Source: a virus (lineage: Duplodnaviria > Caudoviricetes). From it: a stretch of DNA of 36,074 nucleotides. Made by a program: the position numbers and the translations under genes. The notes under the pieces were generated by a model. That model did no database searches. It saw nothing but the letters and a program-made list of their open reading frames with translations, and was not told the origin of the DNA. Numbering within the stretch: position 1 is the first letter of the stretch; each line of letters begins with the position of its first letter. The DNA lies in IMG/VR virus record IMGVR_UViG_3300020044_002638, positions 1 to 36,074 of that record, one strand, 5' to 3'. Of the stretch, positions 20,267 to 35,146 are shown piece after piece.

Positions 20267-21490
20267 TTACAAAAATTCCATAACGATGTCAGCCTTTGGA
20301 GCCTTGATAAGCGGTGCCAGTGCGTACCTGATAGCGTCCATGCAATGGTTGTGCGCGTCCACCACATCAGGCAGAATGTCGCCCGTCAGCCTGTCCACTT
20401 TGTAGCTGTAAAGCCGCGACTCTTTGACCGTCTCAACGCATCGAGGGTGGATAACGATTTCAGAATAACCCCTCATGTGGGCGATGCCATCCTGCACTGA
20501 TCCGGGCCACTTCTTCACGGCTTCAATGCGTGAAAGCCCTTTTCGCTTGAGATAGCTGATTGTCTCTGGCCGCGCAGAATCAGCCCGGATGACGTGATTT
20601 TCAATGCCGGGCACGCATTTTTTGAGGTAATCCGCTGTCTCGTCAATCTCAAGCGCCACCTTGTAGGCCTCATTCTCGACGTAGAGATTCCCAGCGTGAA
20701 TCCAGCACTTGACCGCCGTTGTCGGGTCTTGCGCAAATCCCCAGTCTGCGCCGTGGTAAGGGCCATCCCAGTCAGCACCAGGCACAAACTCAGCCACTTT
20801 TACCTTGCGGGCCAGCACCTGTGAATCGCTGTTTTGCAGGTAAGCGCCTTCCCAAATATGGGCATATGTGGCCGGGTCAAGCGTGGACTGCTGGTGCTTG
20901 CGCAGTTTCTCAAGGCCAGCAGGAAACCAAGGGTTGTCCCCGTGGTTCATCTCCACAATCATTGAATCCTTTGGCGGGTTCTTTCTAAACCTTGAATCAA
21001 CCGGGCTTCCGTCTAATCGTGGGTTCCAGACAACCCACATCTCGGACTTTGGACGCCTGAAGACCGTGGCCTCCAGCGCCAGCCAGGATTGCTCTGGCAC
21101 ATCCTCGGCTTCTTCAACAATGGTCAGGTCAATCTTTGCCAGCGATTTAATCGACCCGGTGTTGTGCCTTAGGCCCCTAAAAATGAACTCAGTGCCGTTA
21201 TAGCCGCGCAAATAATCAATGCCCACATCGTATGCGGCCTCAAGCCATGGATATGTGGCAATCGCCGCCTTCAACTCGGCGTGAAAAGACTCTTTAATGC
21301 TGGCCTGCAAGTCCCGCGCACACAAAACCCTGATCGGCTCGGCATAACCCCAGATTGCAGCCATCAAGGCGAACGAAAACGACTTGGCCGATCCTCGCCC
21401 TCCGTGAGCGCCCCTATATTGCAGTTCGCCTCGCTCTTTGGCGAAAAGCGGGACTAGCTTTGGCGGCAGTTCAATCTTTGCTTCGGTCAC
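20267..21490 (-). CDS. terL: Terminase large subunit, PBSX family
   Basis: Walker A GGRGSAKS, Walker B IVEEAE, WNP, GADWGF..DP, NHCMDAIRYA; GTG start coupled to terS stop. Confidence 0.95.
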   Translation of the reverse strand: MTEAKIELPPKLVPLFAKERGELQYRGAHGGRGSAKSFSFALMAAIWGYAEPIRVLCARDLQASIKESFHAELKAAIATYPWLEAAYDVGIDYLRGYNGTEFIFRGLRHNTGSIKSLAKIDLTIVEEAEDVPEQSWLALEATVFRRPKSEMWVVWNPRLDGSPVDSRFRKNPPKDSMIVEMNHGDNPWFPAGLEKLRKHQQSTLDPATYAHIWEGAYLQNSDSQVLARKVKVAEFVPGADWDGPYHGADWGFAQDPTTAVKCWIHAGNLYVENEAYKVALEIDETADYLKKCVPGIENHVIRADSARPETISYLKRKGLSRIEAVKKWPGSVQDGIAHMRGYSEIVIHPRCVETVKESRLYSYKVDRLTGDILPDVVDAHNHCMDAIRYALAPLIKAPKADIVMEFL

Positions 21491-28351: not shown

Positions 28352-28379
28352 GGGGTGTTACCTTTTTCGCACCTTTGAA

Positions 28380-28446
28380 GAAACGTGGGCAGGGGAAGGT
28401 GTAACCCTTTTCGGTCGGGGGATCAGTCCCGGCCTAGCCTCGTTTC
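28380..28446 (-). ncRNA. C4-antisense-like structured RNA upstream of initiator
   Basis: Closing stem GAAACG/CGTTTC plus GGC/GCC, two inner hairpins joined by GAAAA; TAAAAT -10 just upstream. Confidence 0.6.
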
Positions 28447-28459
28447 AATCTATTTTACA

Positions 28460-30655
28460 TCAAGCGAACAATCCTTGCTGCTCTTTTGATGCGTCCGTGA
28501 TGTTTAAGCAGGCCAGCTCAAAGTATTGCGGCTTAAGCTCAGTGCCAACAAACTTGCGCCCCATCTTGATGGCTGTATAGCCCTCAGATCCAATGCCGGT
28601 GAATGGACTAAAAACCACATCGCCTTTGTTTGTCCAAAGGTGGATGCAGCGCTCAATCACGTCCAGCTGCAAAGGGCACATATGCTTCTCGTCGTTCTCG
28701 TCACGGGCAGGCATTTTGTTCAGCGTGCGGCCTTGGTCGATGTCATCCCAGATCGGGCTGGCATACTTTTGCCACAGGTGGACGGGCAGGTCATCGCCGT
28801 GCGTGACGCGCTCCTTAATCTCTCCAGGCTTGCGCATGGTCACGACGTAATCAGGCAAACCCATGCGGCTCATGGTGCTGTTTTCTCGGATTGTCTTGTG
28901 CAGCAGGCCAAGCGCCTTTGTGCGCTGCATGGCGACAACTGGGTCTTTCCAAATGCAGACCTCTGAGTGATAGATGAATCCAGCATCTTGGAACGCGCGG
29001 ATCAAATCTCCACGGAAATCACGCAGGCCGATAAAGCCCTGGCGCATCTTTGTTGTCGGCAAGTTCATGCAATGGAATGACACATTGCGGCCAGGCTTCA
29101 TAACACGGAAAAGCTCAGAGATCAGGAACTTCAACTGCTCGACAAATTCCTGATCGTTTTTGCAGTTGCCCATGTCGTGATCGCTGTTTGAGTAAACAAA
29201 CAGATCGGCGAATGGCGGCGAGAAAACAGAATAGTCCACGCTGTTGTCTTCCATGCGGCGTGACCATTTGACGCAGTCGCCCAAATGAACCGTAAAGCCA
29301 TCGCCATTGAATGTGTCTTCGCGGTATTCGTCCACGATGTTTTCTTGTCCTGCGAGTTCTTTGTTCATAATGTCTTTCATGTGTTCGATCATGTTTGCGC
29401 TCATCTCGTGATGTTGCACTTCTTTGCGTTTAAGGTTTGCCAGAATCTGGCCTTCGTTTTCTGCGGTGAACATATGCACCTGCACATTGCGCTTTTGTCC
29501 GAATCGGTAGCACCGGCGAACGGCCTGGTAGAACTTTTCAAATGAGTCGTCTAGGCCGACAAATGCCATGCGCGCGCAGTGCTGCCAATTTAGGCCATAC
29601 CCTGCTATTTTTGCCTTGCTAATCATGACTCGAATGTCACCATGCGCAAATGAGAGCAAGTTTTTTGCTTTTGATTCTGGCGAGTCAGACCCCTGAACAT
29701 TCACAGAATCGTCTATCAGCTGCTTGAGCAATTCAGCTTCATCATTCAAGTGACACCAAATAATCCAAGGCTCTGATTTATCGGCATTGACAACATCCGC
29801 CAATGCGCGGCATCGCGCCTCAATGCTATCTCGCTGGGCCTTTCTTCGCTCGGTCATGGTCATGGCTGGGCGCGAGAACAAATCGCCTTCAATGGACTCA
29901 GTCTGAATAACGTGCTCAAAATACTCAAGTGGCGGCAACTCATACCTTGCGCCATCAAATCCCAAATCAGATGGATTGCGCAGCACCACGGCCCATGATC
30001 CCATCCATTCCCAGAACTTTGACGCACCCCATCCCTTGAGTCGCCATGTTCCAGTGTCTCCGGTGTCGTTGACAAAGTAAGTCGCCAGCATCTCGGTGCG
30101 AGTCATGACGCCCAAGAACTCGCATTGGTTGCCAAGCTCCTCAAAATCATTGGGCGATGGCGTGGCAGTGCAACTCAGTCGATACGGAACGCCCTGGGCC
30201 GATGTGATGATGTGCTGGCGCGTTTTGCCATCGTGAGCCTTCAGGATGGATGATTCATCCAGCACCAGGCCATGCAACTCAGTGAAGTCGATGGCATCCA
30301 TGCGCTCGTAGTTTGTGATCCAGACGCCGGGCGAATCAATCACGCCAGAATGAGGCACGCGCTTGACCTCAATGCCAAACGTGGAGCCTTGCTCAATTGT
30401 CTGCTCAGACACGGCAAGCGGGGCCAGCACCAGCACCGATCCACCTGTATGGCTTGCCACCTCATCGGCCCATGAAAGCTGCATCAGCGTCTTGCCAAGT
30501 CCTGTATCGGCGAAAATGGCTGCGCGGCCACGGCGAACGGCCCAGCTAACAATAGCGTGCTGAAAGTCAAACAAATGCTCGTTCAGGTCGCCAGGTTGAT
30601 GGCCTGTCGCCACTTCTTTTCGGCGCTTGGCCGCTACAAAATCCTCATATTCCAC
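28460..30655 (-). CDS. SNF2-like helicase fused to beta-class N6A/N4C DNA methyltransferase
   Basis: FADTGLGKT, LDESS, TATP, QAVRRCYRFGQ; then FSPPF and SPFTGIGSEG; GTG start after GGAGAG. Confidence 0.9.
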   Translation of the reverse strand: MEYEDFVAAKRRKEVATGHQPGDLNEHLFDFQHAIVSWAVRRGRAAIFADTGLGKTLMQLSWADEVASHTGGSVLVLAPLAVSEQTIEQGSTFGIEVKRVPHSGVIDSPGVWITNYERMDAIDFTELHGLVLDESSILKAHDGKTRQHIITSAQGVPYRLSCTATPSPNDFEELGNQCEFLGVMTRTEMLATYFVNDTGDTGTWRLKGWGASKFWEWMGSWAVVLRNPSDLGFDGARYELPPLEYFEHVIQTESIEGDLFSRPAMTMTERRKAQRDSIEARCRALADVVNADKSEPWIIWCHLNDEAELLKQLIDDSVNVQGSDSPESKAKNLLSFAHGDIRVMISKAKIAGYGLNWQHCARMAFVGLDDSFEKFYQAVRRCYRFGQKRNVQVHMFTAENEGQILANLKRKEVQHHEMSANMIEHMKDIMNKELAGQENIVDEYREDTFNGDGFTVHLGDCVKWSRRMEDNSVDYSVFSPPFADLFVYSNSDHDMGNCKNDQEFVEQLKFLISELFRVMKPGRNVSFHCMNLPTTKMRQGFIGLRDFRGDLIRAFQDAGFIYHSEVCIWKDPVVAMQRTKALGLLHKTIRENSTMSRMGLPDYVVTMRKPGEIKERVTHGDDLPVHLWQKYASPIWDDIDQGRTLNKMPARDENDEKHMCPLQLDVIERCIHLWTNKGDVVFSPFTGIGSEGYTAIKMGRKFVGTELKPQYFELACLNITDASKEQQGLFA

Positions 30656-30667
30656 TTCTGACTCTCC

Positions 30668-30771
30668 AAAAAGAAAACCCATGAAAGCCGATGGGACTAG
30701 CATCGAACATTCATGGGTCAGCCAATGAAGGCTTAGATGTATCTGCACCTAGTCCGTGCAACATCTAAGCC
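30668..30771 (-). ncRNA. Two-hairpin RNA with complementary loops; second hairpin terminator-like
   Basis: Loops GGACTAG and CTAGTCC on two long stems; U-rich tract after hairpin 2. Confidence 0.75.
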
Positions 30772-30785
30772 ATCAAGTTGATATC

Positions 30786-31142
30786 TTACCCGATCAAAAA
30801 CATCGGTTCAAGATTTATTTTTACCATCCCCCCAACATCGCCAGCAAATGAAAAGCTCATTGTCCACTTGCTGTCGTCAACGCCGCTGATCTCGGCCACA
30901 GCGTCGATGGCTTGCTTGATCCTAGCGATGCAGTTGTCCAGGTCAATCCTGCGCTTTGATGGCGGGTAAAACGTGATTGTGGCGTGCAGGCGTGGCGCGT
31001 CAATGCGAGTTAGGCCTTGCTGCTTTGCGGTGATGTAGCAGGCTTGGCGGTAGGCTTTGGCTGCACGGGCTTTGATTGCCCAGTGCCCGCGGGCGTTGGG
31101 GCTTAGGTCTGGCGATGGCCAAGGCAAAGTGAGTTCAATCAT
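30786..31142 (-). CDS. RusA-like Holliday junction resolvase
   Basis: LTLPWP..LSPN, PPSKRRIDLDN, K.AIDAV...GVDD motifs. Confidence 0.8.
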   Translation of the reverse strand: MIELTLPWPSPDLSPNARGHWAIKARAAKAYRQACYITAKQQGLTRIDAPRLHATITFYPPSKRRIDLDNCIARIKQAIDAVAEISGVDDSKWTMSFSFAGDVGGMVKINLEPMFLIG

Positions 31143-34131: not shown

Positions 34132-34479
34132 TCAGTATGAACTCAGCGCATCGTGCGCCGTTTGAATTGACTTGGCGGCTTTCGCCAGGTCTTGCTTGAC
34201 CTCGACAGCGATGGCTTTGGCCTTGATGGTCTTTTGTTGGATGGCCCCCAGCATTGACGCTTTTTCAACGCCATCATCGGTTTCTGCGTCAACGTGGATG
34301 CCGCAAATGTAGCGGGCCACCACTAGGATGCGCACAGGCTTTGGAATGGCCGTGTCGTTCTCGTAGCCTGATGCGGCAGCTTGCTTGACGCCTATTGGCC
34401 CCCAAAACTCAGCCTGCCCAAGACCCAACGTCTTGCGCAGCATCTTGACTGACTCGTTTGTGATTTCTTGCTCTTTCAT
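34132..34479 (-). CDS. XRE/Cro-like HTH transcriptional regulator
   Basis: LRKTLGLGQAEFWGPIGVKQAAASGYEN; GAGG RBS; first gene at the divergence point. Confidence 0.85.
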   Translation of the reverse strand: MKEQEITNESVKMLRKTLGLGQAEFWGPIGVKQAAASGYENDTAIPKPVRILVVARYICGIHVDAETDDGVEKASMLGAIQQKTIKAKAIAVEVKQDLAKAAKSIQTAHDALSSY

Positions 34480-34533
34480 ATCGTCCTCGGTTGTTCGATG
34501 GCGCATTGTAGCGTGATTTTTTGTTATCCATCG

Positions 34534-34573
34534 AAAATTATTTTTAGACAATCGCTCAAAATTACATTACAAT
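34534..34573 (+). promoter_or_regulatory. Early sigma70-like promoter (rightward)
   Basis: AT-rich UP element, TAGACA-17 nt-TACAAT; an opposite-strand TACAAT at 34505-34510 may serve the HTH gene. Confidence 0.75.
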
Positions 34574-34615: not shown

Positions 34616-35146
34616 ATGCAAAAAATCGCATCGGCGCTTGTCAAAGCTCAGAAGGCTTTTGGCCCGGCGCTCAAGTCTTCAACCAACCCTCACTTCAAAA
34701 GCCGCTATGCCGATCTTTCGGCGTGCGTTGAGGCTGTCGTGGACTCTCTCAATGAACACGGCATCATGCTCATGCAGCCTACCCATGAATGTGAGCACGG
34801 CGTGACAGTTGAAACGCTATTCATCCACGAATCTGGCGAGACATTCAGCGCCGGTCGTTTGCACGTTCCAGCGGCCAAGCAAGACCCACAGGGATACGGC
34901 TCGGCGTTGACCTATGCCCGCCGATACTCGCTCATGTCTGCCTGCGGTATCGCTCCAGAGGACGATGATGGCAATGCGGCCAGCAAAAAAGCGCCGCCAA
35001 AAAAGGAATCTCTGACAAACGCTCGATTTGCTCAGGCCGTGGAGCGCATCAAGGCGGGCCAATACACCACTGAAAAACTGCGCGATACATTCGCACTCAC
35101 GGCAGAGCAAGAGTCTGCACTGGTGGAGGCGATCGCAAATGCTTGA
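34616..35146 (+). CDS. erf: ERF-family single-strand annealing protein
   Basis: NPHFKSRYADL, HESGE, QGYGSALTYARRYSL, EDDDGN motifs. Confidence 0.93.
   Translation: MQKIASALVKAQKAFGPALKSSTNPHFKSRYADLSACVEAVVDSLNEHGIMLMQPTHECEHGVTVETLFIHESGETFSAGRLHVPAAKQDPQGYGSALTYARRYSLMSACGIAPEDDDGNAASKKAPPKKESLTNARFAQAVERIKAGQYTTEKLRDTFALTAEQESALVEAIANA

Follow-up and report, generated by a model that had tools for sequence, protein, structure and literature searches.

The leader element and its surroundings

The window, by which we mean the whole stretch of DNA analysed (positions 1-36074), is a 36-kb record of a tailed phage. A PHROG scan of its ORFs gave matches to terminase, portal, capsid and tape-measure proteins, and among cultured phages even the nearest capsids reach only about 51% identity. 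No integrase or CI-type repressor was matched among the window ORFs scanned, which were a subset of the total. Elsewhere in the record, an RsaL-like HTH gene (34132-34551, minus strand) is divergent from an ERF gene (34616-35146, plus strand).

The element of interest is read on the minus strand, between a gene for a RusA-like resolvase and one encoding a helicase fused to a DNA methyltransferase (helicase-MTase). The latter has a GTG start codon at 30655 and is followed by a DUF1376 initiator-like gene and then by a DnaB-like helicase gene. Behind a -10 box, the intervening leader of about 108 bases runs through a first hairpin (P1), a short linker and a second hairpin of terminator type (P2) to a U-tract, after which comes an RBS (Table 1). 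The original prediction had described two hairpins with 7-nt loops, an 11-nt linker, a U-tract and an RBS on the minus strand, and a check of the sequence found all of these in their places, the 11 nt being the distance from the P1 core to P2 in the window copy. Its view that the element is a kissing loop carried on a terminator-type hairpin ahead of a gene also agrees with this anatomy; P2 and the U-tract are followed by the RBS and GTG codon. The built-in promoter and the variable loop code described below are additions to that description.

Table 1. Coordinates of the leader, its flanking genes and the copies of a second leader fold
Feature	Position	Strand	Evidence
Upstream gene, RusA-like resolvase	30786..31142	-	PHROG 34, E 3e-22; ORF list
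-35-like hexamer TTGAAC, 17-nt spacer	30806..30811	-	sequence
-10-like hexamer TAAGAT	30783..30788	-	sequence; TAnnnT box kept in family copies
Hairpin P1	30726..30775 (core 30771-30730)	-	folding; covariation
Loop 1 GGACUAG, first kiss half	30749..30755	-	covariation; loop-blind scan
Linker, near-invariant GGC at 30723-30721	30719..30725	-	alignment columns; scan leaving GGC free
Hairpin P2, predicted intrinsic terminator stem	30677..30718	-	covariation; consensus terminator scan
Loop 2 CUAGUCC, second kiss half	30694..30700	-	covariation; loop-blind scan
U-tract	30668..30676	-	sequence; kept across copies
RBS GGAG	30664..30667	-	sequence
SNF2-type helicase fused to N6/N4 DNA methyltransferase, 731 aa, first gene behind leader	28460..30655	-	PHROG 16/67, PF00176, PF00271, PF01555, PF07120, PF03796 (Pfam list for gene and followers)
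Second-fold copies	L009:2860-3000, L078:2855-3000, L083:2860-3000, L080:3640-3790, L038:5290-5430, L638-L757		

The TAA stop codon of the rusA-like gene forms the first half of the -10 box (30786-30788). Together, the two hexamers make up a predicted σ70-like promoter (TTGAAC-17-TAAGAT, 30811-30783) directly upstream of P1, and transcription is predicted to start at about 30776-30773, that is, at the base of P1. The latter has a 3-nt bulge at 30743-30741, five pairs beneath loop 1, and a consensus scan placed a terminator-like site ending at 30678. When 141 nt were folded, the z-score was -3.99 and loops 1 and 2 were unpaired in both the MFE and centroid structures; for the 107-nt element it was -6.25, with both loops open and none of 200 shuffles equally stable. 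The opposite strand also folds strongly (z = -7.36). Because both strands fold well, assignment of the leader to the minus strand relies on the U-tract, promoter, RBS and G-U pairs rather than on fold energy. The tetranucleotide CTAG is strongly avoided in the window, with 21 occurrences against 138 expected, yet it is present in both loops.

A family of phage leaders

An exact 17-base search recovered five close relatives of the window element, and a structure-only scan of the best 80 of 509 helicase-MTase loci found further copies with different loop letters. With a first, loose viral pattern, 37 of 122 matches among those listed had an exact complement upstream, the remainder apparently being due to chance. 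A tighter pattern, which left loop 1 free, was run on viral loci and on GTDB genomes. It gave 70 matches in 64 viral loci (42 of them distinct, overlapping loci being counted twice), and all 70 carry an exact complement of loop 2 located 52-56 nt upstream. None of the 13 matches to the same pattern in GTDB genomes has the kiss, and no prophage copy was found among them. The original prediction that the two loops are exact reverse complements is upheld, and with 70/70 viral compared with 0/13 GTDB matches the kissing-loop match in the window is far beyond chance.

Omission of the linker from the viral pattern gave 73 exact cases among the 122 matches listed; the other 49 are mostly far weaker folds, and the four that were printed lack the family fold. 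A loop-blind viral scan, in which both loops were free, returned 107 hits, comprising 106 family members (68 distinct) and one chance hit. The 7-nt loops are exactly complementary in 106/106 members; a script flagged 105 of these, and the remaining one, L594, which it had passed over, was recognized by eye. When 35 whole records were searched with a covariance model that left out the kiss, three copies beyond those of the pattern scans came to light, two of them exact and one imperfect. In the imperfect copy (L621:397-503, G026), loop 1 is 6 nt long and the linker is altered, and the start of the gene behind it resembles that of the HNH gene behind the L540 copy. Patterns with longer gaps (one metagenome scan and one viral scan) gave 105 loci; 3 of the 100 searched with the model were members. 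All of these copy counts are lower bounds.

A blastn query with the window element gave 11 short chance hits among 50,697 phage records, and one with a relative's copy found a single GenBank record, MW202710.1, in which the leader is unannotated, and no real plasmid match. In Rfam 15 there were no matches in the window (best local E 1.2, a chance value), and none reached the gathering level in 20 related loci; across seven family loci, the only hit was a sub-threshold miRNA match on one P1 (E 0.03). The Rfam/Infernal check that the original prediction had called for thus found no family at the gathering threshold, and its statement that the element could not be assigned to a named family stands.

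Anatomy across copies

Conservation of the layout extends well beyond the loops. All 75 rows that include upstream sequence (73 distinct copies) have a TAnnnT box whose end is 23-28 nt ahead of loop 1, and it is this fixed distance that places the predicted transcription start at the base of P1. Many relatives (35/75 rows) have a TG extension instead of a -35-like hexamer. In 74 copies P1 is 15-21 bp long, falling within 17-20 bp in 67 of them, and a 5-bp upper stem with a 3-nt bulge is found in 54/74. The unpaired linker is 7-8 nt in 60/74 copies. P2 measures 14-18 bp in 74/74 and 16-18 bp in 72/74, and the 9 nt past its stem include 7-9 T in every one of the 74 copies, the first four T being fixed by the search patterns. 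The combination of a strong G+C hairpin and a U-tract that is characteristic of intrinsic terminators was found in 74/74 copies, and P2 is a predicted terminator. A start codon follows 15-31 nt from the beginning of the U-tract (18-23 nt in 71/76 rows). The GGC columns of the linker are occupied in 75, 75 and 76 of 76 rows, with GGC having been included in most search patterns; a scan with no GGC requirement printed 16 new distinct copies, and each of them has it.

G-U pairs account for 264 of the 2612 pairs in the stems, as fits an RNA on the minus (leader) strand. This bears on the idea that the element works as DNA next to the replication genes, for example by forming a cruciform or serving as a single-strand origin signal, which we regard as scarcely credible. 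It could draw on the adjoining initiator genes and on the strong folding of both strands, but the G-U pairs, the one-sided U-tract and the fixed spacing to the -10 box and RBS fit an RNA read from one strand.

The closeness of the RBS, within a few bases of the U-tract, raises another alternative, namely that the leader acts after transcription by protecting the 5' end of the read-through mRNA or by controlling access to the RBS. The window linker can indeed pair beside the RBS. Against this, the surroundings of the RBS vary widely with no conserved anti-SD partner among the 74 copies, and 5' protection needs no kiss; we consider such a role improbable.

Several smaller observations were made on the same copies. 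In 44 of the 67 copies with enough flank, P1 is reached 6-24 nt after the stop codon of the upstream gene, which is often part of the -10 box; in this layout P2 would also end upstream transcripts. The GGC linker can pair with GCY of the 3' arm of P1 (30721-30734 in the window), such that a mini-hairpin of 3-5 bp is possible in 74/74 copies. Four-base spacers are found in copies that include L406, L409, L521, L525, L543, L554, L567, L582, L607 and L384, and 10 of 12 such spacers are GNRA. By prediction, the mini-hairpin would cost 1.4-13.7 kcal/mol except where the 5' end cannot pair, and it remains an unexplained hint. Two further candidates were rejected: a consensus pause at the linker, for which the Y-G consensus fits 52/74 copies and fails in divergent ones, and a pairing of the linker with the RBS, which is possible in the window copy and is not conserved across the 74.

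Covariation and the loop code

Two alignments were examined. The first, A1, contains the window copy and 39 of the 42 distinct copies of the loop-1-free pattern, three near-duplicate or truncated rows having been excluded. Overall, 98.2% of its cells pair; the kiss is paired in 280/280 cells, compared with 35-44% in slid controls, and four of the seven kiss pairs change on both sides. The second, A3, has 76 rows, for 74 of which an exact kiss was required at collection. Its 100% kiss pairing is therefore by construction, and the unbiased figures are those of the loop-blind scan and the covariance-model copies. In A3, six of the seven kiss pairs change on both sides, the pair between A6 of loop 1 and U2 of loop 2 never varies, and 22 exact loop codes and one imperfect code are represented. 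Covariation in the P2 stem extends to 15 of 16 pairs. The loop-loop pseudoknot of the original prediction is well supported by these two-sided changes and by the uniformly exact loops of the loop-blind scan, and the covariation that it had asked to see between homologous loops is present in both alignments.

Swaps were also counted on trees built without the tested block, and such counts are rough because the alignments are short and subject to recombination. Kiss pairs 2 and 5 showed 19 and 24 swaps, more than any stem pair (at most 16 Watson-Crick swaps each), with the most variable unpaired columns, at 23-24 changes, close to them. As sums over seven pairs, the kiss scored 71 and the stem blocks 19-72, such that the kiss is not above the most variable stem block. 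From these patterns, a fast turnover and diversification of the code is suggested. In 71/74 copies the pairing ends at 7 bp with no extension into the stems, which argues for a kiss rather than the seed of a strand swap.

The variability of the loops weighs heavily on the idea of a small-molecule riboswitch akin to guanidine-IV. The topology is the same, with a terminator serving as the expression platform, but six of the seven kiss pairs vary, there are no other conserved loop bases, and the downstream genes have no common metabolite theme; a ligand is consequently very unlikely. A code that is variable but strictly exact would be better matched to an RNA partner.

A small set of features varies little or not at all. 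It comprises invariant or nearly invariant pairs at the base of P1, a U-G wobble (60/76 rows), the invariant U17-A40, the invariant A6-U2 pair of the kiss and the GGC linker. These could point to a phage or host protein that binds the P1 base, the linker or the kiss and so decides termination, either through autoregulation by the downstream product or by stabilizing the loop-loop pair. Rop, which stabilizes kissing RNA loops, offers an analogy for the latter. However, the proteins encoded downstream are mutually unrelated, making product autoregulation unlikely, no candidate binder was identified, and part of the invariance stems from the search patterns. A protein as the deciding factor therefore seems to us rather unlikely.

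Genes behind the leader

The downstream proteins are diverse. Among 37 that were scanned from the 74, chosen to cover the types present, 11 are replication initiator or primosomal proteins, seven are HNH nucleases and five are antirepressor-like; the remainder comprises one RdgC, one ParB-like protein, five with unknown PHROGs and seven with no hit. Pfam domains among the downstream proteins include DUF1376, Rha/ANT and Bro-N. A recurrent 39-aa ORF and several of 56-74 aa lie behind the leaders of L225, L230, L573, L601 and L620, with no PHROG or Pfam hits among those scanned. A specific link to the methylase, as had been proposed from the window alone, was not borne out. The leader lies upstream of the helicase-MTase gene in only six of the best 80 of 509 such loci, and that gene is behind only four of the 74 copies. 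The association is incidental.

Two copies of the leader occur in 7 of 35 records, always with different codes. Judged by the code frequencies in A3, chance alone would give different codes in all seven in roughly one case out of two, and the length of three of these records would accommodate two phages.

A second fold in the same slots

A different leader precedes the same helicase-MTase gene in L009, L078 and L083 and, as judged by eye, in L014. Its predicted fold starts with a small 5' hairpin, and the 7-nt loop strand of this hairpin is complementary to a junction strand of the branched, three-way terminator that follows. Among the matches listed in a scan for this second fold, 116 of 120 have an exact 7-nt partner. 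Three codes were found among the 59 distinct copies tallied, four of the code letters being fixed by the pattern, and no Rfam hit was obtained in the loci tested. The second fold is associated with the same kinds of downstream N-termini and occupies the same promoter slots as the kissing leader. An unrelated fold with the same predicted loop-to-terminator logic thus takes the same slots.

The window itself has a second leader at 28370-28444 on the minus strand, with a TAAAAT -10 box ahead of it and the DUF1376 initiator-like gene behind. It weakly resembles the Rfam int-alpA family (21.6 bits, E 0.016, below the threshold of 35.8), and its fold is no stronger than those of shuffles. In L008 and L011, a second kissing leader lies behind the same promoter where the window has this int-alpA-like leader.

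How the kiss might act

A classical antiterminator helix was sought by folding the window copy with either arm of P2 forced open, and none formed. Apart from the kiss, therefore, no conserved contact was found through which the terminator could be influenced. We propose that it forms during transcription and hinders closure of the terminator base, letting some polymerases into the downstream genes, a reading to which we would give about an even chance of being correct. Polymerase would start at the base of P1. By the time loop 2 appears, about 55 nt further on, loop 1 would be unpaired and could capture it before the lower 11 pairs of P2 form. The kissed, tethered structure might then strain the linker of roughly 8 nt or crowd the exit channel, with less termination as the result, as proposed for guanidine-IV. 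Because the kiss, at about -9.3 kcal/mol, is weaker than the lower P2 stem, at about -16.6 kcal/mol, the outcome would be kinetic and partial, and a stable terminated RNA of ~108 nt would be the common product. At equilibrium, the terminator is favoured over the kiss by about 7 kcal/mol, which counts against the kiss as an ON state.

The opposite arrangement, in which the kiss coexists with a complete terminator, has also to be considered. P1 would bend at its bulge and the stems would lie side by side, giving either a compact, nuclease-resistant RNA of ~108 nt or a reinforced terminator that is opened by a protein or RNA, the kiss then being the OFF state. The lengths of P1 and P2 are matched and the bulge position is conserved, features that may suit such a compact, closed form equally well, and the resulting RNA would have its 5' end in a helix and its 3' end at the terminator. 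In a planar toy geometry with assumed angles, the kiss and the fully closed terminator lie within reach of the linker in 6 of 12 settings, a result that allows coexistence and does not settle ON versus OFF. However, every copy has a gene with an RBS 15-31 nt behind it, and in many cases that gene is essential for replication, so that read-through must occur. Moreover, in the one tested natural case, guanidine-IV, the kiss is described as the ON state (PMC7736828; PMC11611296). On balance, coexistence seems unlikely, and the kiss as the ON state is the reading that we prefer.

If the kiss does promote read-through, something may regulate it, and the only RNA partner found is the leader's own released copy. 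We tentatively suggest, while recognizing that it is some way from probable, that the released leader RNA is the most likely input: with its loop 2 unpaired, it would bind loop 1 in newly made leaders that share its code, and expression of the replication genes would fall. Next in line is a protein that would recognize the invariant base of P1 and the GGC linker. The original prediction had also allowed for an antisense-sensitive switch. As a cis-encoded antisense RNA, this fares poorly: across the 74 copies only 10 antisense -10 boxes turned up, and these are scattered with no peak at any one position. A third site that tracks the code was likewise absent from nine whole records, in which extra copies of a record's own code look like background. 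One extra site with the window's own code, at 21451, is in the terminase coding region.

Taken as a whole, these elements could form a self-contained device for feedback and self-recognition. The kiss would open the terminator in cis, and released 108-nt leaders of the same code would block the kiss in trans, with the code serving as a private address in the manner of a plasmid incompatibility group; at least two unrelated folds would have converged on this solution in the same gene slots. We offer this larger scheme as a speculation that, taken as a whole, is unlikely. If true, it would apply to phages without a recognizable integrase or repressor. As no hit to an integrase or CI-type repressor was obtained among the window ORFs scanned, feedback in trans need not amount to lysogenic immunity. 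Should the codes act independently, they would explain initiator dosing as well as self-recognition among related phages, and would constitute an orthogonal set of RNA-controlled terminators.

Comparison with known systems

No published description of the kissing leader family was found, although the supplement of Weinberg 2017 or the alignments of Fremin 2023 could hold one. In passages of three motif surveys (PMC5737381, PMC8632094 and PMC11109978), the nearest items are the fhsA and HRC-8-4 candidates. The fhsA motif is described as belonging to a chromosomal gene of one-carbon metabolism with folate as its proposed ligand (PMC11109978), a description that sets the leader apart. Fremin 2023 reports 8,495 candidate structured RNA models mined from IMG/VR (PMC10690425), and this set may contain part of the fold without the kiss; no motif or contig name was found in four of its supplements.

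Comparable phage RNAs are the P4 CI RNA, with its seqA/seqC sites, and IsrK of Gifsy-1, which are described as leaders with premature termination ahead of replication or antirepressor genes (PMC4825925). The kissing leader shares with them a predicted termination event ahead of such genes and a short product that could act in trans on the long transcript. P4 CI, however, is described as being processed out and pairing with two flanking sites (PMC4825925), whereas the kissing leader has a single 7-nt pairing inside a 108-nt unit, with no third covarying site in the nine records.

The put RNA of HK022, to which the original prediction had likened the element, is similarly described as two stems near an early phage promoter (PMC9378689). 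An equivalent action would have the leader bind RNA polymerase and confer resistance to terminators further downstream, for which its two long stems, placed right after an early-type phage promoter, and the invariant bases near the stem junction might seem suited. As described, however, put is a V-shaped RNA with a triplex that binds the β' zinc-binding domain and acts on distant terminators; it is not described there with paired loops or with a terminator and U-tract of its own (PMC9378689). The P2 hairpin of the leader has a U-tract, and its loop pairs and covaries with loop 1. A put-like action is accordingly very improbable, and the likeness drawn earlier is not retained.

The proposed effect of the kiss on termination has a parallel in a preprint, which describes a 'tug-of-war' antitermination in which tertiary structure tethered just upstream lowers termination without an alternative helix (PMC13307975). 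There, aptamer and terminator are separate and joined by spacers of 0-4 nt; in the kissing leader, the terminator loop itself takes part in the tertiary contact and the linker is 7-8 nt. According to the same source, termination was already favoured once spacers reached lengths of up to 4 nt, and strong terminators were little changed by simple hairpins placed upstream (PMC13307975). Given the linker of 7-8 nt and the strong terminator of the leader, compared with the short spacers that were effective there, only the kiss could supply such an effect.

The closest relative in design is the guanidine-IV (GGAM-1/mepA) riboswitch, in which, as is predicted for the kissing leader, an intrinsic terminator has its loop paired to that of a hairpin preceding it, and kissing is proposed to keep the outer pairs of the terminator open (PMC7736828; PMC11611296). 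The differences lie in the loops and the genes. Highly conserved loop bases are described as binding guanidine in the riboswitch, whereas the leader has over twenty variable codes and no apparent ligand. Guanidine-IV is reported upstream of transporter genes, mostly in Firmicutes, and the leader precedes phage replication, nuclease and antirepressor genes. No sugE/mepA-type transporter was found among 37 downstream proteins by their listed PHROG hits, seven of the 37 having none.

Judged on its sequence patterns, the kissing leader is a well-covarying and uncatalogued family of phage leader RNAs with a predicted role in control of termination. It would resemble guanidine-IV in its manner of working but lacks the conserved pocket and the genes of that class, and its structure sets it apart from put and CI as these are defined. 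Loop-to-terminator kissing has so far been tested in one natural riboswitch class. The kissing leader provides what would be a ligand-free version, with more than 20 natural codes and a template of 110 bases with its own predicted σ70-type promoter, so that the effect of a kissing loop on termination can be tested directly, using compensatory mutants and purified polymerase.
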